Of a DNA stretch of 64,000 nucleotides, positions 3,809-45,376 are shown one piece after another (position 1 is the first letter of the stretch; every line of letters starts with the position of its first letter). The stretch is taken from positions 281,546 through 345,545 of the forward strand of contig CAVWGL010000009.1 in NCBI GenBank assembly GCA_963754565.1. The letters are read 5' to 3'. Both the position numbers and the translations under genes were made by a program. This DNA comes from Vulcanimicrobiota bacterium. GTDB taxonomy: Bacteria > Vulcanimicrobiota > Vulcanimicrobiia > Vulcanimicrobiales > Vulcanimicrobiaceae. The notes beneath the pieces were generated by a model. The model was not told the origin of the DNA. It ran no database searches and saw nothing but the letters and a program-made list of their open reading frames with translations.

Positions 3809-4081
3809 TTAGGAGGCCCTTGTTCTGACGCCAGCGGCAAGCGCGTCAAGAGAGAGGTCATCAAGGGAGAGCCCGAGAACACGGGCGAGGGCAACGACCG
3901 TGAAGAACGCCGGCGTCGGGATCCTTCCGGTTTCGATCTTGCGGAGCGTCTCCACCGAGATGCCAGCCGCCGATGCCACTTCGCCGAGAGTTGCCGGCCC
4001 CCGTGCATCGCGCAGAACGGCACCGAGGCGTCGACCGCGTTCGATCTCCCAAGGCTTCAGCGGGTCTCGGACCATGCCCAT
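3809..4081 (-). CDS. XRE-family helix-turn-helix transcriptional regulator
   Basis: LGAVLRDARGPATLGEVASAAGISVETLRKIETGRIPTPAFFTVVALARVLGLSLDDL is a typical Cro/C1-type HTH. The start is placed at ATG 4081 (or 4075) rather than 4111. Confidence 0.8.
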   Translation of the reverse strand: MGMVRDPLKPWEIERGRRLGAVLRDARGPATLGEVASAAGISVETLRKIETGRIPTPAFFTVVALARVLGLSLDDLSLDALAAGVRTRAS

Positions 4082-25344: not shown

Positions 25345-28023
25345 TCACCCGCTGCGGGGCAACTGCTGGCGCTTGCTGAGGTTGCCGGCTGCTCGCTCCC
25401 CGAGCCTGGGCACCCTGAACGTGTTGTCCAAGGCGGACGATGCCGCTAATAGCCACGCTTCGCACTGAGGCGCCGGCAACGGACGGGCCAGGAAGAAACC
25501 CTGCACGGCGTGGCAGCCGAGGCTCTCGAGCCGTTGCAGCGTGGCCTGGTCTTCCACGCCCTCGGCCGTGACCGTACGCCCGAGGTTCCGGGCTAGCTCT
25601 ATGGTCGAGCGCACAATAGCTTCATCGCCCTTGTCTCGGATCATTTCCTTGACAAATGACCGGTCGATTTTCAGCTCGTGGAACGGCAAATGCTTCAAGC
25701 GGCTGAGGGACGAGAAGCCTGTGCCGTAATCGTCAATCGAGAGGTTGACCCCCAGCTCGCGCAACCCGTGCAGCACTCGTTCCGAAGTCTGGGGGTCCGC
25801 CATAGCCGACGATTCGGTCAGCTCGAGCGTCAGGGCGCTCGGTTCCAGCCCAATTTGCTTCAACACGCCGCCGAGACGCATCGATATGTCCATGCTCATG
25901 AGGCTGCGAGCCGATAGGTTCACGGCCACGTTCAAGTCGGGGATTATCTGACGCCAGACCTTGGCCTGGCCCAAGGCCGTCTCTATGACCCACCATGTGA
26001 GCTGGTCGATCAGGCCCGCGCTCTCGGCCACCGGGATGAACTCGGTGGGCGAGATAGGGCCGAACTGGTCGTGGCTCCAGCGCAAAAGAGCCTCGCAGCT
26101 GACTACAGCCCCCGTATCAAGCTGCACTACGGGCTGGTACCAGACATCGAGGTCCGCCTGCTCGATTGCCTGGCGCAGTTCGGTGGCCAGTCGGAGCCGG
26201 CGAAGGGTCGAACGGTCCTCGACGCGGTCGTAGAACCGGACCCCACCTCCCGACCCTTTGGCCGCGTACATGGCTATGTCGGCGTGGCGCAGCAGCCCCG
26301 TGGCGTCATGGCTGTTGGGCAGGGAAACGGCCACTCCCAGGCTGGCCCGCACGTCGAGCAGCAGGCCCTCGACTCCGAGGGGCTGGCAGATGGTGGCCAC
26401 AATCTGTTCCGCTTTATCGAAAATGGCCTCGTCCTCGAGGGTGCCGACGTGCAACACGGCAAACTCGTCCCCGCCCAAACGAGCCACCAGGTTGCCGTCC
26501 TGGTCGAGCGGCCCCAGGCGCTGGGCGACCTCTCGCAAAATGGCGTCGCCGGTGTGGTGGCCGAGGGTGTCGTTGACCTCCTTGAAGCCGTCCAGGTCGA
26601 TGAGCATGACGGTGACGCGGCTATCGGGCGGTGCCCCCTCAGTGGCCTCTTCGAGGCGCTCGGCGAACAGAGCACGGTTGGGTAGCCCGGTGAGAGCATC
26701 GTGCTGCGCTTGGTGCTGGCGGACCGAGGCCTCGCGGCGGAGTTGCTCGAGCAACTTGCTGCTTCGTAGCGCCACGCCCACGTTAGCGGCCAGAGCCTCG
26801 AAAAAACGAAGGTCGGTGCGTTTAAACCCCTCGTGCTTGAAGGCCCTGTCGGCAACGAGCAGGTAACCGGCACTCGAGTCATCGCGCTGGAGCGGTGCGA
26901 CCAGCACCTCTTTCAGCCCACCCTGGGCGATCGCTGCCGCCAGGGCTTCGTCGTCCTTCGAGCTGTCACTGGCGAGCAAGGCCCCGCGCTCGCGCACAAT
27001 ATTGTCGAGGGTAGAAAAAGGTGACCTATCGTCCAGGTGCGGCGGCCCCTCACCGCTCAATGCACAACGCAGAGCGAAGCCCAGCGAGGGTTCGTCGAGC
27101 GGTATGACCAGTTCAGCATGACCAGCCGAAAGAAGGCTGCGCGCCTCCTCGAGCACGGTCCCCATGACGTCTTGGGCTTCGACTAGTGACCCGAGCCGCC
27201 GAGTGAACTCGTAGAGCTTTTCCAGGTTGGCGTAACGCTGGCCCGAAAGGATCGTCCCTCGATAGGCGAAGTTGGCTGCGGCGGCAATCGCAATGAACAG
27301 CACGACGCCCCAGATGTTGACCCAGATCAGCGAGATAGCGACCAAAGCGCCGGCAGTGCATACGACGACATGAAGTGCCCCTTGCAGTGCGATGCCCCGC
27401 ATGGGCGGGCGCCGCCAGTTCGGGTTGACCACCGCGAGTGACACGAGCAAAAGTACGAGGTCGACCAGGTTGATCGTGGTTACGGCGCCCATGGTCACTA
27501 CCCAGCCCCGTGCGCTAATAGGGGTCGATGTCCCGATGGCCCAGTCGTAGAACAGGACCCCGATTGCCGCGCTGGCCGTGTAGACCAGCCAGTTAGTGAG
27601 TGCCTTTGTGGGCTGCCGTCGACGCTGGGCGTTGGCCGCGATTTGCCCAAACGAGATTGCGCTCAGCAGCAGCCACGGCGACAGGAAAACGATCCCCACC
27701 AGCGCTGGTATCTCGGTCAGCTGGATGGAAAGGCTCGACTGCCGGTTGCGGACGGCGACCGGTTGGGCGCATGCAGCCCAGATCCCCAATGCCACGAACA
27801 GCCATAAGGCGGGGCGGTTGCCGCCAGCAGGCTTGAGGTCAGATAGTCGGGTGAAATAGAGGACGGCGGTCCCACCTGCCAGGACCGCCGCCAAGAGAAG
27901 GGCGCGCCCTACGGCGACTTGTCCTTTGCGTACGTCGGGGATTGGTTGAGTGTTCGCTGGCTTGTCCAAAGACCGGGCTCCGAAGACTCGCGTCAGGTCA
28001 CCCCGGATCTCGACCGGTGGCAT
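25345..28023 (-). CDS. membrane-anchored GAF-GGDEF-EAL signalling protein (c-di-GMP turnover)
   Basis: Intact 892-aa ORF with an N-terminal multi-TM region, a GAF-like segment, RLGGDEFAVL (GGDEF), and CEALLRW...DDYGTG...KIDRSF (EAL). Confidence 0.9.
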   Translation of the reverse strand: MPPVEIRGDLTRVFGARSLDKPANTQPIPDVRKGQVAVGRALLLAAVLAGGTAVLYFTRLSDLKPAGGNRPALWLFVALGIWAACAQPVAVRNRQSSLSIQLTEIPALVGIVFLSPWLLLSAISFGQIAANAQRRRQPTKALTNWLVYTASAAIGVLFYDWAIGTSTPISARGWVVTMGAVTTINLVDLVLLLVSLAVVNPNWRRPPMRGIALQGALHVVVCTAGALVAISLIWVNIWGVVLFIAIAAAANFAYRGTILSGQRYANLEKLYEFTRRLGSLVEAQDVMGTVLEEARSLLSAGHAELVIPLDEPSLGFALRCALSGEGPPHLDDRSPFSTLDNIVRERGALLASDSSKDDEALAAAIAQGGLKEVLVAPLQRDDSSAGYLLVADRAFKHEGFKRTDLRFFEALAANVGVALRSSKLLEQLRREASVRQHQAQHDALTGLPNRALFAERLEEATEGAPPDSRVTVMLIDLDGFKEVNDTLGHHTGDAILREVAQRLGPLDQDGNLVARLGGDEFAVLHVGTLEDEAIFDKAEQIVATICQPLGVEGLLLDVRASLGVAVSLPNSHDATGLLRHADIAMYAAKGSGGGVRFYDRVEDRSTLRRLRLATELRQAIEQADLDVWYQPVVQLDTGAVVSCEALLRWSHDQFGPISPTEFIPVAESAGLIDQLTWWVIETALGQAKVWRQIIPDLNVAVNLSARSLMSMDISMRLGGVLKQIGLEPSALTLELTESSAMADPQTSERVLHGLRELGVNLSIDDYGTGFSSLSRLKHLPFHELKIDRSFVKEMIRDKGDEAIVRSTIELARNLGRTVTAEGVEDQATLQRLESLGCHAVQGFFLARPLPAPQCEAWLLAASSALDNTFRVPRLGERAAGNLSKRQQLPRSG

Positions 28024-28370
28024 TCAAACTGTAGATGTTCCGACCGGCGCGTGTACCTCGCCAGTCGGACGTGGGCATGCCACATCAGCAGCGTGGTCGC
28101 CATCGTACCTGTGAAAAGTTTCTCTAGACAGGGATCCGAATATCAGGAAGAATCGGAAGGTGGCCAATGTGGGGCCTGGCGCAAGGGCCACCTGGCCTGC
28201 GGTTATTCTCTTAGGGGTGCCCCATCTACTTCTACCGTGCTTTTTTGCCGGCTGGCACCTAAACGGTGTTGGGAGGGCTTCGCCGAGTAGGTCTTCGGGC
28301 TGAAGGGTCGAATGCGGGCCCGACATGAGGGGACTCAAGTCAATGTCGAAAAACACGAAGGAGGAGAGAA

Positions 28371-28394
28371 ATGCGCAGCTTCGCGGTCGATTGA
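28371..28394 (+). CDS. mini-ORF copy 1, MRSFAVD
   Basis: ATGCGCAGCTTCGCGGTCGATTGA, with GAAGGAGGAGAGAA immediately upstream. Confidence 0.4.
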   Translation: MRSFAVD

Positions 28395-28439
28395 AGCCAG
28401 ACGTCACCGGACCGGACAAGAGCAAGAAGGAGGAGAGAT

Positions 28440-28463
28440 ATGCGTAGCTTCGCCGTTGATTGA
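28440..28463 (+). CDS. mini-ORF copy 2, MRSFAVD
   Basis: ATGCGTAGCTTCGCCGTTGATTGA, with GAAGGAGGAGAGAT upstream. It differs from copy 1 only at three synonymous third positions. Confidence 0.4.
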   Translation: MRSFAVD

Positions 28464-28508
28464 AGCCAGCCGTCACTGGACCGGACAAGAGCAAGAAGGA
28501 GGAGAGAT

Positions 28509-28532
28509 ATGCGCAGCTTCGCCGTTGATTGA
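28509..28532 (+). CDS. mini-ORF copy 3, MRSFAVD
   Basis: ATGCGCAGCTTCGCCGTTGATTGA, with GAAGGAGGAGAGAT upstream. Confidence 0.4.
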   Translation: MRSFAVD

Positions 28533-28582
28533 ACCGTCAAGACCAGACGAAATAACGGAAGAAAGGTGAAGGAGGGAGAGAC

Positions 28583-28606
28583 ATGCGCAGCTTCGCCGTT
28601 GATTGA
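28583..28606 (+). CDS. mini-ORF copy 4, MRSFAVD
   Basis: ATGCGCAGCTTCGCCGTTGATTGA, with GAAGGAGGGAGAGAC upstream. Confidence 0.4.
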   Translation: MRSFAVD

Positions 28607-28790
28607 TCAACGCCGCTTAAGACCAGGACTTGAGTTGTTCCGACGCGGCTCGGGCTCAGACACCGAAGCGCCACTTGAGCGCGGTGCGAGCCTGGTCTCC
28701 TTGTCGTGTGAGGCTCTGGTACCCTCGGGTCGGCCCCCGGCGCCCTTTTGTGTAGGGGCCAGGTTCGGGCGTCCAGTGTTTTGGGAGGTA

Positions 28791-30203
28791 GTGCGGTTGG
28801 CGTCCGTCGAGCGGGCGGCATCTGGTTCATCGGGCACGGTTGGCGCGCCCAGTAGCCCTACGGCGGCTCCCGCCGGACGGCGGTCACTGGGTGCGACGTT
28901 CAGGCGGCTTTGGTGGGCGACGGGCATATCGGCAAGTGGCGATGGCTTATTGGCCGTTGCGGTGCCTTTATTGGCCTTGACTCTAACGCGAAACCCTTTG
29001 ATCATCGCGGGCCTGACCGGAGCTAATAGGGCCTCGGCGGCGATCGCCGCACTGCCAGGTGGGCTCGTGGCCGACCGCTGGGACAGGCGCAACGTGATGG
29101 TCGCTTGCAATGTCGTGGCCGGTGTGACCCTGCTGGCCCTGGTTGGTGCTTTGACCATCGGGTCGGGCGAGCTCGTGATGTTGTACATAGTGGCGACGGT
29201 CCTCGCTGCCTGCGATGTGACCTATACCCTGGCCGTCCAGGCCTCGTTGCCCGATGTCATCTCGCAGGACCGGCTCGCGGTTGCCAATGGCCGGCTTATC
29301 GCGGTCGAGGGGGCCGGCGAGCAGCTCATAGGGCCAGCAATCGGCGGTGTCCTTTTTTCCCTCGCCCGCAGGGTGCCGTTCTTTGCTGACGGCATCAGCT
29401 TCTTTGTGTCAGCGTCGCTTGTAGCAATCGGCCTGCCGCGCCGTGCCCGTCCTGCCTGGCGACCGGCTGGCCACGGTGCCGGAACCTCGAACGGCGCCCG
29501 CCCTCATGTCCGGGCCACAGAGCAGATCACTACGCCAGCCGGTACTCGTGGCCCCGAGGAGGGCAGGCTTCGACGCGCCGAGGACCGGTCCCGCTGGACG
29601 GTCGATTTCCGGCAAGGGCTAAGCGTGTTCAGGAGCGACCGGGCACTCAAGCTGCTGGCCGCGGTGGCGGCGGCAGGTGCCCTGTGCCAAACGATGGTCC
29701 TTGCCATCCTGGTGTTGTACGGCGAGCAAACGTTGCACCTGACCTCGACTGGCTATGGGCTGTTCCTTGCTTTTGCGGCCGCCATCGGCGTGGCCGGAGC
29801 TCATTTCGCCGGATATTTGCAGGAGCGCTGGGGGTCCGGCCAGCTGGTCCTCGGTGGTCTGACGCTGGCCGCGGTTAGCTACATTGGCCTCGCCTTCACG
29901 CACTCGGTTGTGCCCGCGGTGTTCGTGTTCGGCTTGCAAGAGATCGGTACCGTGGCCGCCAATGTCGGCTCGGTGACAGCTCGCCAGCACATCATCCCGC
30001 GTCGCCTCTACGGCCGGGTCGGCAGCGTGCACAGGCTGGCCGTGTTGAGCGCCAGTGCTGTTGGCGCGCTGTTAGGGGGGTTCATCGCGTCGGCGTCTTC
30101 GGTGGAGGCCACCATGCTCGTGGCCGGCGCATCGTGCGTTGTGACAATGGCGCTGTTCGCTCCGTGGTTGCTTCGAGCGCTGGCCCCGGCAGGCCATCGC
30201 TAA
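28791..30203 (+). CDS. MFS transporter
   Basis: Start placed at GTG 28791 (GGGAGG 5 nt upstream) within track ORF 28566..30203. The N-terminus ...FRRLWWATGISASGDGLLAVAVPLLAL and multiple TM segments are typical of MFS_3-like pumps. A long basic central loop is present. Confidence 0.85.
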   Translation: MRLASVERAASGSSGTVGAPSSPTAAPAGRRSLGATFRRLWWATGISASGDGLLAVAVPLLALTLTRNPLIIAGLTGANRASAAIAALPGGLVADRWDRRNVMVACNVVAGVTLLALVGALTIGSGELVMLYIVATVLAACDVTYTLAVQASLPDVISQDRLAVANGRLIAVEGAGEQLIGPAIGGVLFSLARRVPFFADGISFFVSASLVAIGLPRRARPAWRPAGHGAGTSNGARPHVRATEQITTPAGTRGPEEGRLRRAEDRSRWTVDFRQGLSVFRSDRALKLLAAVAAAGALCQTMVLAILVLYGEQTLHLTSTGYGLFLAFAAAIGVAGAHFAGYLQERWGSGQLVLGGLTLAAVSYIGLAFTHSVVPAVFVFGLQEIGTVAANVGSVTARQHIIPRRLYGRVGSVHRLAVLSASAVGALLGGFIASASSVEATMLVAGASCVVTMALFAPWLLRALAPAGHR

Positions 30204-30909: not shown

Positions 30910-31407
30910 GTGCTACGAGTCTCTGCCGTCCAAGAGGTTACTGACGACCTGATGAAGGCCGTCCAGCACCTGGTACCCCAGCTGTCGAGCTCGGCCGGCC
31001 CTCCCAGCCGACGAGAAGTAGAAGAGATCGTCAGCTCGCCGGGTACGACGTTGCTCGTGGCTCGAGACGACACGCTCGACGAGACCGATGGCGTGGCCGG
31101 CCAGGACGCCGCGGCCAACTCCGACGAGCCCCGCGGCCCGATTGTGGGGATGCTTACGCTCGTGACTTTCCGGATACCGACCGGGGTCCGTACCCGCATC
31201 GAAGACGTGGTCGTCGACAGTGCCGGCCGGGGCCGAGGCGTCGCTACAGAACTTACCCGGGCCGCCCTCGAGATCGCAGCAGCCAGGGGTGGCCACACTG
31301 TTGACCTGACGTCGCGACCGTCTCGAGAGGCAGCCAACCGCCTATACCAACACCTCGGCTTCGTCCAGAGGGAGACGGTCGTCTACCGCTACGAACTGCC
31401 TTCTTAG
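30910..31407 (+). CDS. GNAT-family N-acetyltransferase
   Basis: ...RIEDVVVDSAGRGRGVATELTRAALEIAAARGGHTVDLTS...ANRLYQHLGF is the acetyl-CoA-binding motif A region. GTG start at 30910. Confidence 0.85.
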   Translation: MLRVSAVQEVTDDLMKAVQHLVPQLSSSAGPPSRREVEEIVSSPGTTLLVARDDTLDETDGVAGQDAAANSDEPRGPIVGMLTLVTFRIPTGVRTRIEDVVVDSAGRGRGVATELTRAALEIAAARGGHTVDLTSRPSREAANRLYQHLGFVQRETVVYRYELPS

Positions 31408-31435: not shown

Positions 31436-32854
31436 TCAGTAGGCGCGCGCCACCACCGCATCGAGCTCGGCCACGTCGTCACCAGGCCCGGGGAGAGATC
31501 CGTCCCGGCGTTGCAGCAGGCGGACCGTGATACCCCCGGCATTGAGCCGCCCTTCCCCATCGCCCGCCACGAGCGCTTCTCCAGGCACAACAGCAAAGCC
31601 CGATTGAGCACCCTCCTCCGCCTCCTCCAGGGTGGAGGCGCGGACGGTGTTCTCCTCCCGCCGGCGCAGGGCTTCGGCGAACATGGCGGCCTGGCTCGAC
31701 TCGAGCACCGCGGTAACGGCCGCCACTACCCCCTCCAGCGGCAGCGAGGACTTGGTCTTGTCGTCGCGCCGCGAAATCACGACAGTGCCTGCGGCCAGGT
31801 CGCGAGGCCCGAGTTCCACGCGGACCGGGACACCCTTCAGCTCCCAATTGACCACTCTGCGGCCGAAAGATAGATCCGTTCTTACGTCCAGCTCCACCCT
31901 GACCCCGGCGGCTCGCAATTGCTCGGCCAGCGCCGAGGCGGCTTCGCCGGCACCTTCTTCGGTCCGCACCGCGAGCACCACCACCTGCACCGGTGCCAAT
32001 TGGGGTGGGATCCTGAGGCCGGCGTCATCGCCATGCACCATGATGAGAGCGCCCATCAGTCGTGAAGAGGCGCCCCACGAGGTCTGCCAGGCGAAGCTTT
32101 GCTGGCCACTTTCGTCCAGGAACGTTATGCCGAAGACCTTGGCGAAAGATTGGCCCAGCTCGTGGCTCGTCCCCATCTGCAGCGCTTTGCCATCGCGCAT
32201 CATGGCTTCGGTCGTCCAGGTCGTATTCGCCCCGGCAAAACGCTCACGGTCTGTTTTGCGCCCCACCAGGACAGGGGAAGCCAGGACATTGACCATGAAG
32301 TCCTCGTAAACGTCCCGCAGTATGCGCAAGGCGTAGCGGTGGGCGTCCTCCTCGTCGGCGTGAGCGGTGTGGCCCTCCTGCCACAGGAACTCCGTCGTCC
32401 GCAGGAACAACCGGGGACGCAGTTCCCAGCGGACGACGTTGGCCCACTGGTTGACAAGTAAGGGAAGGTCCCGGTAGCTCTGGATCCACTTGGCCAGGAA
32501 CGAGTCGATGATCGTCTCGCTGGTCGGGCGCACGACTGCGGGCTCCTCCAGTTTCTTCCCGCCCCCGTGGGTCACGACCGCCAGTTCCGGGCTGAAGCCC
32601 TCGACATGCTCCGCTTCCTTGTGGAAATAGCTCTCCGGGATTAGCAGCGGGAAGTAGGCGTTTTGCGCCCCCGCCGCCTTGATGCGGGTGTCGAGCTCCA
32701 TCTGCATCCGCTCCCAGATGGCATAACCATAAGGCCGGATGACCATCGTGCCGCGTACGGGGCCACCCTCTGCCAGCTCGGCTTTGGCCAGTACGTCCTG
32801 GTACCACTGAGGGAAGTCGTCAGCTTGAGGGGTGAGGACGTCGGCTTTGGGCAT
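31436..32854 (-). CDS. proS: proline--tRNA ligase (short, archaeal/eukaryote-like type)
   Basis: Intact 472 aa. FPQWYQDVLAKAEL...VRGTMVIRPYGYAIWE...PTSETII...RWE.RPRLFLRTTEFLWQEGHTAH...SWG.S.R matches class II ProRS. Confidence 0.93.
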   Translation of the reverse strand: MPKADVLTPQADDFPQWYQDVLAKAELAEGGPVRGTMVIRPYGYAIWERMQMELDTRIKAAGAQNAYFPLLIPESYFHKEAEHVEGFSPELAVVTHGGGKKLEEPAVVRPTSETIIDSFLAKWIQSYRDLPLLVNQWANVVRWELRPRLFLRTTEFLWQEGHTAHADEEDAHRYALRILRDVYEDFMVNVLASPVLVGRKTDRERFAGANTTWTTEAMMRDGKALQMGTSHELGQSFAKVFGITFLDESGQQSFAWQTSWGASSRLMGALIMVHGDDAGLRIPPQLAPVQVVVLAVRTEEGAGEAASALAEQLRAAGVRVELDVRTDLSFGRRVVNWELKGVPVRVELGPRDLAAGTVVISRRDDKTKSSLPLEGVVAAVTAVLESSQAAMFAEALRRREENTVRASTLEEAEEGAQSGFAVVPGEALVAGDGEGRLNAGGITVRLLQRRDGSLPGPGDDVAELDAVVARAY

Positions 32855-40292: not shown

Positions 40293-42679
40293 ATGGCGCA
40301 CCCTGACGTGCCTGCTGAGCAGGCCTACCTCGACCGTGCTTACGAACGCCTCGAGGTTGTCCGGGGCGAGACCCAGGCTCGCCTGCGGGAGGCGTTCAGG
40401 GAACGCGGGGGTACGTTCCAGTCCTATACCGAACGCGATATCAGGGTGCGTAACAGCCTAAACCGCCTCGAGAAACTGCAGCTGGGACGAGAGGCCCTCA
40501 TCTTCGGCCGCATTGACCGGGCTGGTCACCATGACGGTGAGGGTGCTGGCGCTAGTGAAGCCGACGCCGTAGGTGGCGGGCGAAGCGAGCGGGGCAGCGG
40601 CGAGGACGAAAGCTTCCATATAGGGCGGCTGGCGCTCTCGGACGCCGAGCACGAACCCCTGGTGGTGGACTGGAGGGCGCCGGTGGCCGAGCCCTTTTAC
40701 CGGGCGACGGGGGCGCGCCCTATGGGGTTGCGCCGGCGGCGCCATTTCCTGACAGAAGGCCGGCGGGTCGTCGACCTCGAGGATGAGCTGTTCGCCCCGG
40801 ACGGGACGGAGGTGTCGGCCGAAGTGCTCGGCCTGTCCGGGCCTGGTGTGTTGAGGGCGGCCCTCGAACCGCGCCCACACCGGCCGGATGCGCGACATCG
40901 TCGCCACCGTCCAGGCTGAGCAGGACGAGATCATCCGCTCCCCCCTGCCCGGGGCGCTGGTCGTGCAGGGCGGCCCTGGCACCGGGAAGACGGCCGTAGC
41001 TCTTCACCGGGCCGCCTACCTCCTCTACACGCACCGCTTCCCGCTCGAGGTCCAGGGAGTGCTCGTAGTCGCCAATCCCACCTTCCTGCGCTACATAGAC
41101 CAGGTGCTGCCGTCGCTCGGAGAAACAGGGGCCGAACTTTCAACCGCCAGCGGGCTGTACAAAGGGGCCAAGCCGGTGGCGACCGAGCCGGTACCGCGTG
41201 GCCCGCCTGAAGGGCGACCCCAGGATGGCCAGGTTCATCCGGCGGGCCGTCCGCCAACGGGAACGACCGCTGCGCAGGACGGCCGAGATCCCCTACGGCC
41301 GCCTGGTGCTAACTCTCACACCTCAGGCCTCGGCCGAGATCGTGAGTACGGCCAAGAGACGTTCTGGCCCGCACAACGCCCGTCGCCGGCTAGTCGAGCG
41401 CTTGCTATGGGAGCACTTTGCCGCCCAGTTCGAACGGCGCGGAGACGGCCCCGACGGCCGTCCGGGCGAACAGGGACGGGCCGGAACAGGACGTGGCCAG
41501 ACCGCCTCGGGGCCAGTGGCACCTGGCTCCGACGAGATCTCGGCCAGCGAGCTCGGGGCGGAGCTGCGCCACCGGCCCGAAGTAGTGGAACTTCTCGAGC
41601 GGATCTGGCCCAGGATGACGGCCGAAGCTTTTCTGCACGACCTCTTTGGAGCGAGGCCGCTGATCGCGCTGGCTGGCAACGGCGTGCTCAGTGCGACAGA
41701 ACTCGACCTCCTGTTCCGCCCTAGAAGCGCAAACCTCAATGACGTCCCGTGGTCTCCAGCCGACGTCGCCTTGTTGGACGAGGCGAGCTGGCTGCTCGGC
41801 CCGGTGCGCTCTGAGCCAGCTACCGAGCACCGGTCCTACGGCCACATCGTGGTCGACGAAGTGCAGGATCTCTCGCCCATGGAGCTCAGGATGGTCGGCA
41901 GACGGTCGCTGTCTGGCTCCATGACGCTGGTCGGCGACATCGCTCAGGCGACGGGTTATTGGGCGCCGAGCTCCTGGGACGACCTGATGGCGCACCTGCC
42001 GGCCCGCAGAGGCTGGCGCCTGGCCAGCCTGTCCGTGAGCTATCGCGCCCCTGCCGAAGTGATGGAGCTGGCGGCGCACGTCCTCGCCGCGGCCCTGCCC
42101 GGGGCCAGGCCGCCTGAGCCCGTGCGCCGGACAGAACGGCGCCCGAGGGTGCTTACGCCGAGCACGAACGCCGGTCAAGACGGGACGGCGGTCTGGCACG
42201 CGCTCATTTCCCGCACCGTCAAAGACGAGCTTCAGGCCGTTTCCGCCATCGAGGCCGGCGAGGACGGCAGCGTGGGCGTCCTGGTCCCGTCAGAGCTCTT
42301 GGCTGACACGAGGTCGGCTCTCGAAGAAGGAGGTGTGGCCTTCGGCGAAGTCGGTTCGGGTGCCCTAGACACGCCGGTGAGCCTCCTCGCGCTGGGCGAC
42401 GCCAAGGGCCTGGAGTTCGACTCCGTGGTGGTCGTGGAGCCGGCACGTATCGTTGCGCAACCGCCCGAAGGGATGCGCGCCCTCTATGTGGCTGTAACCC
42501 GCTGTACCCGGCGGTTGGCCATACTGCACCGGGAGCCACTGCCGGCACCTCTGCGGGGGGCGGACCGTGGCCCAGGACAAGAAGACGGCTCAAGTGATGG
42601 GCCGGATGCGAGAGACGCCGGCACAAACCTAGAAGGCGTCGGGCATCCAGGGGACGGGGCCGGCGAAGAGGGCCGTTAG
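40293..42679 (+). pseudogene. helD: HelD-type UvrD-like helicase (RNA-polymerase-associated), 2 frame breaks
   Basis: EQAYLDRAYERLEV...HIGRLALSD...LVVDWRAPVAEPFYRAT, then GGPGTGKTAVALHRAAYLLY, then ...HIVVDEVQDLSPMELRMV...VSYRAP...KGLEFDSVVVV...LYVAVTRCTRRL. The frame switches near 40870 and 41200. The 3-prime end overlaps the convergent gene. Confidence 0.8.
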
Positions 42680-43898
42680 GAACCCCAGGCTGGGGTCGTC
42701 CTCGTCCAGGGCGCCGAGCAACACCAGGTCGGACGGCGTAGCCAGGCCGGTGTACAGCGCGGAGAACAGGCCGATGGGCAGCGTTTTTGCCGGCGCCGGT
42801 TTGGATCGTCTGGTTCCGGCCGGCACGGTTTCGGGCGACACGGTTTCGGCGCCTTCCTCGGGCCGCGGCTCGGTCGGGGTCACAGCGACCCTGCCCCCGC
42901 TGGCGCGGACCACCCATGACCCTGAGTTCCCCGGAAAGAGGGGGTCGTGGATACTGAGGACGGTTTCGCCTTCGACGGCCGGGTAACCCCGGGCTTCGAG
43001 CGCCCCGGGCACGTCCAGCACCCGCAACATCCACCTGGTCCATGAAGGGGACAGGGCGAACCCGTTGGTCTGGAGGACTAGGCCCAGCGGCCCTGCGCTC
43101 ACTGGCCCAACCACACCAGGTCCTTGGCCGCGTTCTCGAACCGCCTGAAGTACCGGATGAGAGAGTTGAACGCGGCCGCGCTCGTGGCGACCAGGTGCTT
43201 ACAGAACAACGCGTAACTCCCTCCCCGCCTTTCTTCCAGGAAGTAGCTGGCATAGCCGGCGATGCCGTCGTTGCCCGCGACGACCGCGGTGCGCTGGTAG
43301 GTGCCCTCGCCGGCGTGGGCGAGGGAACGGTCCACCCAGAAAGCAGGGTCTGCGGTCTCGACGGGCCCGTTGAACCGGCGAGCAAACTTAGAGAAGCAGG
43401 TCATGACCTCGCCGATCTCGTTCTTGTCCATCTCCCTCACCGATAGCTCACTGACCTGGGCGTTTGTGGTGCTGCCCCCCGGTAAGCCGGCCGCCGGCAG
43501 ATCGGCGATCGCCACTCGGAAGTGCGGCCGGAAACCCGCGAACTCGTAACCCAGCTTCCTGTACAAGGTGGCCGTCGAGGGGTAGAGAGCGCTCACGAGC
43601 CGGCCCTCTGCTCGGCCCTTTCGCAACAGCTCGCTCACCAGCGCGGCCGCCGTCCCACGCCCGCGGTCCTCTGGCTGGACGACGACTCCCTCGATGCCTG
43701 CGCAGGGCACCGGGCCCCGCCGAACCACTGGTCGAAGTCGATCGAGCGGGCGGAGGCGGCCACACGGGCCCCGTCGTAGACGCAGAGACGGCCGGTCAGG
43801 GAGATCCTCTCTGGCCGGGCCGGGGAATTGAACGCCAGACCGGACAATAAAGCGATTGCTTCCCTGTCCGTCTCGTCGGGGGGGCGGATGTCGGGCAT
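42629..43898 (-). pseudogene. Eis-like GNAT acetyltransferase with a C-terminal SCP2-like domain, 2 frame breaks
   Basis: Pieced from 43635..43898, 43099..43728 and 42629..43114. GIEGVVVQPEDRGRGTAAALVSELL is the GNAT motif. The C-terminus ...IHDPLFPGNSGSWVVRASGGRVAV...LFSALYTG...FAGPVPWMPDAF matches the Eis family layout. Confidence 0.75.
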
Positions 43899-43946: not shown

Positions 43947-44243
43947 GTGCTGGTACTGACGAGGCATGTCCACCAGAGCATCGTGATAGGCCAGGACGTC
44001 GTGATTACGGTTCTGGAGGTCCGGGGGGACCAGGTCCGGCTGGGGATCACAGCACCGAAGGACGTCCAGGTCCATCGCGAGGAGGTCTTTGCCGCCCTGT
44101 CGGCCGCCGAGCGCCAAGACAGTTTGCCCGAACCGGGTGCATCTGAAAGGGTGCCTCACGGCGTTGTCCGCCAGGGCGTTGTGCCCGAGGACGTTGCGGC
44201 CCAGAACATCGGAACGGCCACGGACCAGAGCCCTAGGGCCTGA
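43947..44243 (+). CDS. csrA: carbon storage regulator CsrA/RsmA-family RNA-binding protein with a C-terminal extension
   Basis: GGAAGGAG lies 6 nt upstream of GTG 43947. MLVLTRHVHQSIVIGQDVVITVLEVRGDQVRLGITAPKDVQVHREEVF aligns position by position with canonical CsrA ([48 protein letters not shown]). Confidence 0.8.
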   Translation: MLVLTRHVHQSIVIGQDVVITVLEVRGDQVRLGITAPKDVQVHREEVFAALSAAERQDSLPEPGASERVPHGVVRQGVVPEDVAAQNIGTATDQSPRA

Positions 44244-44440: not shown

Positions 44441-45376
44441 GTGCCAAACAACCATGCCGCTCAGCCCGAGGAGGACTTGGTCCGCCTATATCTGAACGAC
44501 ATCGGCAAGCATTCGCTGCTGACGAAGGACGATGAGGCAAGGTTGGCGCAAGCCATCGAGGCCGGGCGAGCTGCCCGAGCTGAGATGGGGGCGAGCCGCC
44601 AACTGACGGTCCCCCGCAAGCGCGAGTTGCGGCGAGCCATCAGAGAAGGCGACGAAGCGGCGGAGACGTTCGTAAAGGCCAACCTGCGGCTCGTCGTCTC
44701 CATCGCCAAGAAGTACCAGGCCGCAGAGCTACCGCTGCTCGACCTGGTGCAAGAGGGGAACCTCGGGCTGATGCACGCGGTCGAGAAGTTCGATTGGCGC
44801 AAAGGCTTCAAGTTCTCGACGTATGCCACCTGGTGGATCCGTCAGGCGATAACCCGCGGCATCGCCAATACGGGCCGGACAGTTCGTCTCCCTGTCCATG
44901 CCGGCGACCTTTTGACCCGTGTCACCAAGGCTCGCGGCCGTCTCGAGGGCCAACTCGGGCGCCGTCCGACCTCGGCTGAGCTAGCCAACGACCTCGAGCT
45001 CGAAGAGGAAAAGGTGATCGAGATCCTGCGTCACGCGGCGGAGCCGCTGTCGCTCTCGGAGCCGCTTCGGGAGGACGGTGACGCCGAGCTGGGCGACGTG
45101 GTCGAGGACCGTTCGGCGGTGTCGCCGTTCGAGGCCGCCGCCGCATCGTTGTTATCCGGTGAGGTCAGCAAGATGCTCGTCGCCCTGGACGAGCGCGAAC
45201 GGGAGATCCTCCGGCTCCGCTTTGGCCTGGACCGGGGAGAGCCCCGGACGCTGGACGAGGTGGGCGAGCACTTCAACCTGACAAGGGAGAGGATCCGCCA
45301 GATCGAGGCCAGGGCGATGTCGAAGCTGCGTCACCCGTCCACCGACCGGGGGGCGCGAGAGCTGCTGACCACCTAG
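44441..45376 (+). CDS. sigma-70-family RNA polymerase sigma factor (group 1/2, principal-like)
   Basis: DLVRLYLNDIGKHSLLT, ANLRLVVSIAKKY, LDLVQEGNLGLMHAVEKFDWRKGFKFSTYATWWIRQAITR, and EREILRLRFGLD...TLDEVGEHFNLTRERIRQIEARAMSKLRH cover regions 1.2 to 4.2. It is intact. Confidence 0.9.
   Translation: MPNNHAAQPEEDLVRLYLNDIGKHSLLTKDDEARLAQAIEAGRAARAEMGASRQLTVPRKRELRRAIREGDEAAETFVKANLRLVVSIAKKYQAAELPLLDLVQEGNLGLMHAVEKFDWRKGFKFSTYATWWIRQAITRGIANTGRTVRLPVHAGDLLTRVTKARGRLEGQLGRRPTSAELANDLELEEEKVIEILRHAAEPLSLSEPLREDGDAELGDVVEDRSAVSPFEAAAASLLSGEVSKMLVALDEREREILRLRFGLDRGEPRTLDEVGEHFNLTRERIRQIEARAMSKLRHPSTDRGARELLTT

Follow-up and report, generated by a model that had tools for sequence, protein, structure and literature searches.

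What does a row of four seven-codon open reading frames for the same peptide do in front of a transporter gene? The locus lies in the genome of an uncultured Acidimicrobiaceae bacterium and was examined within a window of 64 kb, the whole stretch of DNA analysed. Four units, each consisting of a strong Shine-Dalgarno (SD) site and a mini-ORF for the peptide MRSFAVD, precede a drug-pump-like MFS transporter gene. Relatives keep one to five copies with only silent changes in sense codons within a genome. On this pattern the peptide is almost certainly translated, although translation in vivo is inferred from sequence alone, and it most likely acts inside the ribosome to sense or counter a compound that the pump would export. 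This last reading is tentative.

The mini-ORF units and their relatives

The units described by the first-pass annotation are real. Each unit reads GGAGG, 7–8 nt, then ATG CGN AGC TTC GCN GTN GAT TGA, and the periods are 69, 69 and 74 nt. The four ORFs differ only at three third positions (CGC/CGT, GCG/GCC, GTC/GTT). The units are as follows.

28357..28394 (+): unit 1, SD GAAGGAGGAGAGA (28357–28369) and mini-ORF 28371–28394, with CGC, GCG and GTC at the variable codons, MRSFAVD.
28426..28463 (+): unit 2, SD (28426–28438) and mini-ORF 28440–28463, with CGT, GCC and GTT, MRSFAVD.
28495..28532 (+): unit 3, SD (28495–28507) and mini-ORF 28509–28532, with CGC, GCC and GTT, MRSFAVD.
28568..28606 (+): unit 4, SD GAAGGAGGGAGAGAC (28568–28582) and mini-ORF 28583–28606, MRSFAVD; this copy is homologous to the last (or only) copy in every relative.
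28783..30203 (+): MFS transporter gene, SD GGGAGG 28783–28788, conserved TTG start 28797, stop 30201–30203.

Tandem Repeats Finder reports a 69-nt period with a score of 312, and a second repeat search reports 4 copies. A degenerate peptide pattern with up to 3 mismatches hits exactly these 4 sites in 64 kb, against 0.01 expected from shuffles. Each start is preceded by GGAG ending 7–8 nt upstream. The SD and ORF block is 90% identical among copies on average, while the 24 nt after the stop are 69% identical. Three points of the first-pass annotation needed correction. The SD block of copy 4 has one extra base and does not fit the proposed SD formula exactly. The transporter start had been placed at GTG 28791, however, this codon is not conserved and is out of frame in relatives, and the conserved start is TTG 28797 in the same frame. 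Additionally, four copies is not a fixed feature, as relatives have 1, 2, 3 or 5.

The array is not a one-off repeat. Seven related lineages with the same gene order (GGDEF/EAL, leader, MFS, GNAT, ProRS) carry 1–5 copies of M-R-S-F-(A/T/V/I)-(V/I)-D-TGA at the same place (class 1). These are MRSFAVD ×4 (the window and locus L009, from the same species), MRSFTID ×5 (orthologous loci L010 and L016), MRSFVID ×2 (L011), MRSFAID ×3 (L017), MRSFIID ×1 (L018) and MRSFIVD ×1 (L029). A more distant clade (L013–15, L019 and L022; class 2) carries two ORFs, MSLRGYGAD and MGMRGYGAD, that both end in RGYGAD-TGA. All end in TGA and all have GGAG ending 5–8 nt before the start. All sequences come from uncultured MAGs of one family-level group. 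A relaxed motif search over the window and all related loci, on both strands, finds only these sites.

Wider searches returned little else. An exact-peptide scan of one genome per GTDB species matched only the same species (L009, 97% identical over 8 kb); the other 8 hits are single matches without an SD, about the number expected by chance. A JGI metagenome scan with an SD plus MRSFx(V/I)D gave two unrelated low-GC chance hits, in a collection that evidently lacks the relevant contigs, although JGI-derived orthologs exist. A plasmid BLAST search gave no match, and the N-terminal extensions of homologous MFS predictions gave no further leader sequences apart from the same species. The first-pass annotation had named a dispersed generic repeat among the outcomes that would refute it, and these searches do not show one. 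No Rfam covariance model matched at E<=1 in 27000–30000 on either strand. In the limited literature searched, none of six peptide strings appears in any relevant paper (a single RGYGAD hit is an unrelated ecology paper), and no description of tandem identical leader ORFs was found. An 85-aa ORF at 28312–28569 and a 545-aa extended MFS ORF are artefacts of the 69-nt (23-codon) period, since periods in relatives are not multiples of 3. Gene callers swallow the last mini-ORF into a falsely extended MFS N-terminus, so that elements of this kind are invisible in standard annotation.

The interpretation offered in the first-pass annotation is partly supported. Its core inference, that selection acts on a translated peptide and its ribosome-binding site and that the array is not a neutral duplication, is strongly supported. 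Within genomes, class 1 shows 9 synonymous third-position differences, one ATG/GTG swap and no non-synonymous change, and class 2 shows 4 synonymous and 0 non-synonymous differences, so that all 13 differences in sense codons are synonymous. Rough neutral probabilities are 2e-7 and 5e-3. Between lineages, R, S, F and D are kept through synonymous codon changes, while spacers are only 54–69% identical. Copy number varies between lineages and some spacers within an array are near-identical (window copies 1–2; L010 copies 2–4), therefore duplication is ongoing. A recent duplication without function of its own is nevertheless very unlikely and largely refuted, as the mini-ORF is conserved across lineages whose MFS proteins are only 61–72% identical, and synonymous-only change persists even where spacers have diverged beyond easy alignment (L017). 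The suggestion that the minus strand carries CUCCUCCUU anti-SD-like repeats is equally unlikely and nothing supports it. No ORF or motif on the minus strand is conserved beyond the complement of the SDs, and the conserved promoter-like block and the MFS gene are on the plus strand.

The first-pass annotation also proposed that the GGA motifs bind CsrA. A CsrA gene is present at 43947–44243 (PF02599, E = 4e-24), and there are 13 GGA in 270 nt against 4.1 on average in the window. This reading, in which the repeats would titrate CsrA or another RNA-binding factor and the mini-ORFs would be incidental, is not supported as the main function and is considered very unlikely. Every GGA lies in an SD at canonical spacing from a start codon, and protein binding to GGA does not explain constraint with free wobble positions and fixed amino acids. 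In contrast to CsrB/RsmZ-type RNAs, which are non-coding and present many GGA motifs in hairpin loops, the array is predicted to be unstructured, and L018 and L029 have a single unit.

The leader RNA and its link to the transporter

The link to the MFS gene is supported. Synteny is strict, and the last ATG lies 199–213 nt from the MFS SD in every lineage. The RNA between them is conserved and has modest covariation support. The remaining features of the leader are as follows.

28119..28153 (+): conserved promoter-like block TTTCTCTAGACAG-N17-AAGAAT (TAGACA 28125–28130, AAGAAT 28148–28153), the probable distal promoter of the mini-ORF transcript.
28160..28225 (+): conserved 5′ module, a G+C-rich hairpin (GGTGGCC...GGCCACC) followed by CCTGCGGTTATTCTC(TTAGG), the latter containing a TANNNT-like hexamer (TATTCT, TATCGT or TATCCT in relatives).
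28607..28782 (+): conserved, structured 3′ leader RNA between the last mini-ORF and the MFS ribosome-binding site.
28611..28616 (+): 5′ arm (CGCCGC) of predicted helix P1.
28681..28686 (+): 3′ arm (GCGGTG) of predicted helix P1.
28714..28729 (+): invariant block CTCTGGTACCCTCGGG (TGNTA(C/G)CC(T/G)TC), inferred to be either an extended −10 promoter for the MFS gene or an anti-SD segment.
28732..28770 (+): predicted terminal hairpin (helix 7) just upstream of the MFS SD.

The promoter-like block was found by a consensus scan. It is near-invariant in all lineages that have mini-ORFs and absent from MFS orthologs that lack them. The 5′ module also co-occurs strictly with mini-ORFs, and the window and L009 differ by 1-nt indels on both stem sides, however, its predicted folds were inconsistent and their z-scores were not significant. 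The block at 28714–28729, about 50 nt before the MFS SD, has related blocks in MFS orthologs without mini-ORFs (L023 TGGTAGCCTC, L025 TGATAGCCTC). It could be the pump's own promoter, which would make the mini-ORFs a separate upstream unit.

In the alignments of the 3′ leader, 86% of cells are paired against 29–41% in slid controls, and the covariation score is 0.200 against 0.152 in shuffles, a value reached by 1 of 500 shuffles. The P1 arm starts exactly 4 nt after the last stop codon in 7 of 7 class-1 lineages. It lies within the roughly +17 nt that a ribosome protects when the Asp codon is in its P site (PMC6238534). Alignment columns 8/91 show C-G in three lineages and U-A in four, and columns 9/90 show G-U versus G-C; this is probably a single evolutionary event, so that the support is modest. 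An alternative partner for the arm, GCGGC at 28645–28649, was also predicted. The terminal hairpin varies in sequence but keeps its pairing, and 4 of 11 pairs show changes on both sides. A hairpin between the 3′ codons of the last ORF and the 4–9 nt after the stop is strong in the window, L010, L011 and L029 but weak in L016, L017 and L018, and is only a hint.

No consistent switch could be modelled. The MFS SD is mostly paired in predicted ensembles, with an unpaired probability of 0.08–0.20 in 7 of 8 orthologs. Masking the footprint of a ribosome at the stop raises predicted SD accessibility in the window/L010/L016 clade (0.08 to 0.32, 0.20 to 0.53 and 0.18 to 0.46), but not in five other orthologs. 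RNAalifold predicted long-range pairing of the last mini-ORF with the MFS SD and start. This was rejected as a general mechanism because most pairs are G-U or change on one side only, and masking the ORF frees the SD only in the same clade. No conserved intrinsic terminator was found; one weak terminator-like hit in the window (28729–28741) is not conserved in relatives.

The transporter is DHA3-like (TIGR00900 2A0121, MFS_3), below the family cut-offs. Its best family hits are DHA3 2A0121, Tet(V) and EntS, the family that contains MefA.

Candidate functions of the peptide

The first-pass annotation suggested a stalling or attenuation sensor or, alternatively, a tiny exported or bioactive peptide. 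The data do not say which function applies, however, a sensor remains the best fit and the second remains possible. In the preferred model the leader would be long, about 640 nt if transcription starts at the distal promoter-like block. The peptide fits R-(S/G)-(F/Y)-x-(V/I/A)-D-stop and is conserved at the amino-acid level, counted from the stop codon. The nascent peptide would act at the peptidyl-transferase centre (PTC) and exit tunnel and, in response to a tunnel- or PTC-binding compound, would slow or arrest the ribosome at the Asp or UGA codon. Natural macrolide-like or other ribosome-targeting drugs are the obvious candidate ligands. A ribosome held at the end of the last mini-ORF would cover the P1 arm, re-fold the conserved 180-nt RNA downstream and change expression of the pump. 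Extra copies, arising by lineage-specific tandem duplication, would multiply the sensing or ribosome-holding sites and give more signal, mRNA protection or denial of a Rho loading site.

The analysis itself establishes the units with their strong SDs, purifying selection on the peptide in every copy, the strict linkage to and spacing from the MFS gene, and a conserved structured RNA with one helix arm inside the footprint of a terminating ribosome. Translation in vivo, ribosome arrest, the ligand with inducibility of the pump, the direction of the switch and the choice between transcriptional and translational control are inferred only. The model as a whole is held tentatively. A further point against it is that one copy would suffice for a sensor, yet every copy of 2–5 is under purifying selection.

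The closest precedents are short antibiotic-sensing leader peptides of resistance genes, including ErmBL, ErmCL, ErmAL and the Cat86 and CmlA leaders. The 8-residue MefAL (MTASMRLR) controls the DHA3 pump gene mefA by ribosome-mediated attenuation, and the 6-residue MsrDL (MYLIFM), which precedes msrD, arrests at its stop codon (PMC10314930). ErmBL arrests with GAU-Asp in the P site. The present units likewise have a tiny ORF with its own strong SD on the same strand as a resistance-type gene, a conserved peptide rather than nucleotide sequence, an ORF end next to an RNA helix arm, and a pump of the broad family that includes MefA. They differ in a new peptide family without a +x+ motif (no R/K-x-R/K), in the iteration of identical copies each under selection, in about 200 nt of conserved RNA before the gene, and in the absence of an identified conserved terminator or clear SD-sequestering switch. 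The peptide matches no established arrest motif (+x+, IFVI, IAVV and others); only partial resemblances are seen, FVI in L011 as in ErmCL and V-D as in ErmBL. Amino-acid biosynthesis attenuators do not fit, as the peptide has no repeated codon and the downstream gene is a transporter. In the tnaC-tnaA leader, arrest at a UGA stop blocks Rho and is thought to control events in a spacer of about 200 nt before the structural gene. TnaC, however, has 24 residues and a single copy and senses tryptophan, and here no rut-like C-rich unstructured region is evident and the spacer is structured.

An unlikely but live alternative is that the units are natural resistance mini-genes. The peptide would act in cis and eject a tunnel-bound antibiotic at termination, the bottle-brush mechanism of the E-peptide (encoded in 23S rRNA) and of selected pentapeptides such as MRLFV, and the adjacent pump would then remove the drug. 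Many strongly translated copies would raise the rate at which ribosomes are cleaned. This would explain features that a pure sensor does not need, namely optimal SDs, 1–5 copies each under purifying selection, and an unusually unstructured, purine-rich array RNA (z = +2.26, with all 200 shuffles folding at least as well). The peptide register is fixed relative to the stop codon, and drug ejection occurs at termination (PMC2928234); the neighbouring pump is DHA3-like. The known peptides also begin M-R with an aromatic or hydrophobic core and need high translation flux. Tenson and co-workers regard resistance peptides and Erm leader peptides as mechanistically related, with the position of the stop codon deciding between ejection and stalling. 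However, known erythromycin-resistance peptides must be 4–6 residues long (PMC2928234), and these are 7 residues in class 1, 7–9 in class 2, end in Asp, and are physically coupled to a conserved leader RNA and a pump gene. The consensus of Leu/Ile at position 3 and a C-terminal Val is not matched. The exact 4-nt spacing to P1 and the conserved 180-nt RNA are not explained, and two lineages have a single copy. The known peptides were found by over-expression or selection, and no natural, dedicated gene of this kind is known to us, so that the prior is low.

A second alternative, also unlikely, is that the heptapeptide itself is the product, a directly encoded and probably formylated signal or bioactive peptide made in high amounts from iterated mini-genes and exported by the adjacent MFS. 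The closest model is microcin C, with a short abundant mini-gene transcript whose 3′ structure is controlled by the ribosome, where mccA encodes MRTGNAN, MccC is an MFS exporter and the MccE C-terminal domain is a GNAT (PMC4010828). ORFs of 7 codons support reiterative translation without ribosome release (PMC6495379), ribosome binding to mccA controls a downstream RNA structure (PMC4231749), and mccA is tandemly duplicated in Synechococcus. Here 7-codon ORFs with an efficient RBS are followed by a structured RNA, positioned so that it could respond to the ribosome, an MFS (28797–30203) and a GNAT (30910–31407); both protein types are common, so this is weak evidence. All copies are constrained, and each of the six class-1 lineages has its own variant at positions 5–6, which resembles pherotypes. 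However, two defining features of microcin C fail. All copies in all lineages end in Asp, not the Asn that MccB adenylates (PMC4010828). No ThiF/MccB-like adenylyltransferase, MccD, MccF or any peptide-modifying enzyme was found among the genes called and scanned within about 15 kb on either side, from a crude gene list that may have missed some, or among syntenic neighbours in relatives. The GNAT lies about 700 nt beyond the MFS gene and is generic (weak RimI-like hit). The locus is chromosomal with housekeeping-type synteny (ProRS, GtrA, methyltransferase), not a mobile biosynthetic cluster. No bacterial signal peptide is known to be translated directly as a 7-mer, and anchoring of the motif to the stop codon while the N-terminus varies (M, MSL, MGM) suits a nascent-chain effect better than a mature ligand.

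What iterated, constrained copies would mean

The evidence leaves room for an unlikely view that the array is not, or not only, a sensor but a dedicated natural effector, whose only product is a 7-residue peptide that works where it is made or after export. It would either sweep an antibiotic out of the ribosomal tunnel at termination, with the pump then expelling the drug, or be exported unmodified as a signal with lineage-specific pherotypes. Either would be the first natural system of its kind, with copy number acting as the dosage control.

The iteration of identical, individually constrained copies is unusual for leader peptides and raises the question of what a cell gains from several stalling sites in one leader. 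Candidate answers are signal gain, mRNA protection, blocking of Rho, or drug ejection. Peptides that act in the ribosomal tunnel have repeatedly revealed how small molecules and nascent chains jointly silence the ribosome, and they make compact biosensors. If the main reading holds, these mini-ORFs represent a new family of ribosome-tunnel-acting heptapeptides, with the clean signature R-S/G-F/Y-x-V/I/A-D-stop, from a poorly studied, uncultured actinobacterial lineage.

The mini-ORF array and its neighbourhood
The stretch 28357-28606 holds four head-to-tail units in the leader of an MFS transporter gene. Each unit features a purine-rich Shine-Dalgarno (SD) block (GAAGGAGGAGAGA; in copy 4 it is GAAGGAGGGAGAGAC), followed by 1 nt (none in copy 4) and then by ATG CGN AGC TTC GCN GTN GAT TGA. 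The starts are located at 28371, 28440, 28509 and 28583. All four ORFs encode MRSFAVD, and their only differences are three third-position changes. Tandem Repeats Finder gives a 69-nt period with a score of 312, and a degenerate peptide pattern allowing up to 3 mismatches hits only these four sites in the 64-kb window, against 0.01 expected. GGAG ends 7-8 nt before every start. The four repeated units described in the first-pass annotation are confirmed, with minor corrections.

The window comes from an uncultured Acidimicrobiaceae bacterium. A GTDB representative contig (L009, MAG MFD03399.bin.2.46) is 97.0% identical over 8 kb and carries the same four ORFs, and the stretch 28200-28790 differs from that contig at only 6 positions, about 99% identity. 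The only differences between the two strains inside the array (28440-28487) are three substitutions in unit 2, namely CGC/CGT plus two spacer bases. In L009 the spacer after unit 2 is identical to the spacer after unit 1, which is consistent with recent gene conversion or very recent mutation. The neighbouring genes are as follows.

Genes surrounding the mini-ORF array.
25345-28023, minus strand, GAF-GGDEF-EAL protein
ends at 30203, plus strand, MFS transporter
30910-31407, plus strand, GNAT acetyltransferase
31436-32854, minus strand, ProRS

The MFS protein hits MFS_1 and MFS_3. Its best NCBIfam models are TIGR00900 (2A0121, an H+ antiporter subfamily, the DHA3 family), EntS and Tet(V), all below their cut-offs, and no solved relative was detectable by sequence. 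The conserved start of the transporter is TTG 28797, 9 nt after GGGAGG, whereas the GTG at 28791, given as the probable start in the first-pass annotation, is not conserved and is out of frame in relatives. Automatic gene callers start the gene at GTG 28566 (protein P0001, 545 aa, N-terminus VKEGETCAASPLID...) and read through mini-ORF 4 in another frame, so that the mini-ORFs are hidden in standard annotation. The 85-aa ORF at 28312-28569 is likewise an artefact of the 69-nt (23-codon) period. The central cytoplasmic loop of this MFS family (about 29440-29620 in the window; also seen in MFS proteins P0015, P0037 and P0011) is long, low-complexity and hypervariable, and some relatives carry runs of GNP or GAT repeats in it.

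On the other side of the leader, the GGDEF/EAL gene has no SD site at its minus-strand start (28023-28045). On its own strand a TACAGT -10-like hexamer ends 4 nt before the ATG, and the block CAAACTGTAGATGTTC is invariant or nearly so (at most 2 mismatches) in every related locus that has mini-ORFs, which suggests a leaderless mRNA. Further away, two adjacent minus-strand ORFs at 42629-43728 together carry GNAT (Acetyltransf_9, Acetyltransf_17) and SCP2_2 domains, which is the domain set of Eis-type acetyltransferases; the split may be a frameshift or an artefact of the crude ORF calling used here.

Related loci and constraint on the peptide
The key result comes from contigs that encode orthologs of the MFS protein. 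The same gene order recurs in these contigs, and the intergenic leader carries mini-ORFs of the same family, with MRSF-type peptides forming class 1 and RGYGAD-type peptides forming class 2.

Mini-ORF peptides and copy numbers at the window and at the related loci (L numbers denote contigs that carry the locus).
Window and L009: MRSFAVD, 4 copies
L010 and L016: MRSFTID, 5 copies
L011: MRSFVID, 2 copies, one copy with a GTG start
L017: MRSFAID, 3 copies
L018: MRSFIID, 1 copy
L029: MRSFIVD, 1 copy
L013-15, L019 and L022: MSLRGYGAD + MGMRGYGAD, 2 copies; MFS about 62% identical, and the second ORF has an internal ATG that would give MRGYGAD

All stops are TGA, and the common motif, counted back from the stop, is R-(S/G)-(F/Y)-x-(V/I/A)-D. 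MFS homologs at 47-48% identity (L023, L025-28) have no such ORF. Within genomes, class 1 shows 9 synonymous third-position differences, one ATG/GTG swap and no amino-acid change, and the two class-2 ORFs differ by 4 synonymous changes in their 6 shared codons. Crude neutral expectations for these patterns are 2e-7 and 5e-3, respectively. Between lineages, Arg, Ser and Asp are kept through CGC/CGT, AGC/AGT and GAT/GAC, and only positions 5 and 6 change residue. Spacers within arrays are 54-69% identical, against 82-90% for the SD+ORF block, and a relaxed motif search over the window and all related loci, on both strands, returned these sites and nothing else.

These results show that the peptide and its RBS are under purifying selection in every copy, and that copy number (1-5) is a lineage-specific variable produced by tandem duplication. 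A neutral duplication, and likewise the minus-strand element considered in the first-pass annotation, are contradicted by the comparative data. All sequences come from metagenome-assembled genomes of one group, with about eight independent lineages. There is also a hint of an extra RNA-level constraint on the last copy (codon 6 of the last copy at 28598-28600 in the window, 3798-3800 in L010, 3801-3803 in L011 and 3798-3800 in L016). In L010, L016 and L011 the last copy has T at the wobble position of codon 6 (ATT) where the upstream copies have C (ATC), whereas in the window only copy 1 has C (GTC) and copies 2-4 all have GTT. In the window, L010, L011 and L029 the last codons can pair with the 4-9 nt after the stop.

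Conserved parts of the leader outside the mini-ORFs
Three further conserved parts travel with the mini-ORFs.

28119-28225, plus strand, 5' module
last stop to the MFS SD, plus strand, conserved RNA of about 180 nt
28717-28726 (within 28714-28729), plus strand, invariant block TGNTA(C/G)CCTC, followed by a variable-sequence hairpin before the SD

The 5' module begins with a promoter-like TAGACA-17-AAGAAT (TTTCTCTAGACAG-N17-AAGAAT). This is followed by a putative G+C-rich hairpin, with compensating 1-nt indels between the window and L009, and then by CCTGCGGTTATTCTC, which has a TANNNT-like core. The module lies 248-256 nt before the first ATG in class 1, and it is present in every lineage with mini-ORFs and absent from those without. 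It could be a promoter plus operator, or a small structured RNA domain.

The distance from the last ATG to the MFS SD is 199-213 nt everywhere. RNAalifold and pair counting give modest support for a structure in the intervening RNA: 86% of cells are paired against 29-41% when partners are slid, and the covariation score is 0.200 against 0.152, reached by 1 of 500 shuffles, although the covariation events are few and phylogenetically clustered. The most informative helix is P1. The 5' arm of P1, (C/T)GCCGC, begins exactly 4 nt after the stop in all seven class-1 lineages and pairs with GCGG(T/C)(G/A) about 70 nt downstream, with C-G in one clade and U-A in the other. An alternative nearer partner (GCGGC) also exists. 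A ribosome protects about 17 nt 3' of the first P-site nucleotide (PMC6238534), and a ribosome with Asp in the P site and UGA in the A site would therefore cover this arm.

The TGNTA(C/G)CCTC block lies about 30-60 nt before the MFS SD, and related blocks occur in the MFS orthologs that lack mini-ORFs, L023 (about position 3875) and L025 (about 3925). This block belongs to the pump gene itself and, as inferred from sequence, it is either an extended -10 promoter (TGNTANNNT) or an anti-SD segment; its CCTC could also pair with the SD.

The array itself is purine-rich (65%), lower in G+C (53% against 65%), and predicted to be less structured than every shuffle in the window (z = +2.26), however, the L010 array is not significantly unstructured (z = +0.94). 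An open RNA, strong SDs and several constrained copies would be explained if the units were resistance mini-genes. Specific 4-6-residue peptides expel macrolides from the ribosome at termination and are thought to be mechanistically related to Erm leaders (PMC2928234). However, the peptides described here are 7-9 residues long, and this reading, which is considered unlikely, does not explain the coupling to the leader RNA. The array is also enriched in GGA, and a CsrA homolog (PF02599, E = 4e-24), unusual for Actinobacteria, is encoded at 43947-44243 next to a sigma-70 family gene (44441-45376). Titration of CsrA, whose binding was suggested in the first-pass annotation, is nevertheless argued against by the codon-level constraint, by the absence of hairpin-loop presentation and by the single-copy lineages.

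Proposed mechanism and relation to described systems
The best-supported reading, which remains tentative, is a cis-acting nascent-peptide element in the leader of an efflux-type pump. The peptide would make the ribosome dwell at the Asp or UGA position in response to some tunnel- or PTC-binding compound, and occupancy of the end of the last ORF would decide how the downstream RNA folds. The units with their SDs, the selection on the peptide in every copy, and the fixed linkage of a conserved leader RNA to the MFS gene are findings of the sequence comparison, whereas the promoters, transcripts, translation, stalling and the ligand are all inferred. The interpretation in the first-pass annotation was partly supported, as selection on a translated peptide and its ribosome-binding site is strongly supported and, of its proposed functions, a stalling or attenuation sensor remains the best fit.

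Precedents for such a mechanism exist. MefAL (8 residues) controls the pump gene mefA by ribosome-mediated attenuation, and MsrDL (6 residues) arrests at its stop codon by blocking release factors (PMC10314930). ErmBL arrests with GAU-Asp in the P site. The switch proposed here is hypothetical, as no conserved terminator was found in the leader alignments, and masking the footprint of a terminating ribosome frees the MFS SD in predicted folds only in the window/L010/L016 clade. If the TGNTA block is a promoter, the mini-ORFs lie upstream of it. Additionally, a single copy would do for a sensor, whereas all copies are constrained. Possible uses of extra copies, which are inferences, are more sensing sites, protection of the mRNA, or ribosomes spaced every 70-80 nt so that Rho has no loading platform.

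There is also the possibility, likewise unlikely, that the peptide is itself the product. The microcin C system shows that a 7-codon gene can encode a product (MRTGNAN), and it features an MFS exporter, GNAT immunity, ribosome-controlled RNA folding after the mini-gene, reiterative translation favoured by the 7-codon length, and even tandem precursor genes. In the locus described here the C-terminus is Asp, not Asn, and no MccB/ThiF-like or other modifying enzyme was found within about 15 kb or in the conserved synteny. Only an unmodified exported peptide remains possible.

No match to the leader was found in Rfam. None of six peptide strings searched appears in any relevant paper of the literature collection used, and no description of tandem identical leader ORFs was found there, though the collection is limited. 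A natural effector mini-gene that either ejects a drug or is an exported heptapeptide would depart furthest from described systems; it is not excluded, but it is considered unlikely. In the favoured view the element would work most like the short antibiotic-sensing leader peptides. It is not a member of any described motif class, and it adds the unusual feature of 1-5 identical, individually constrained copies.
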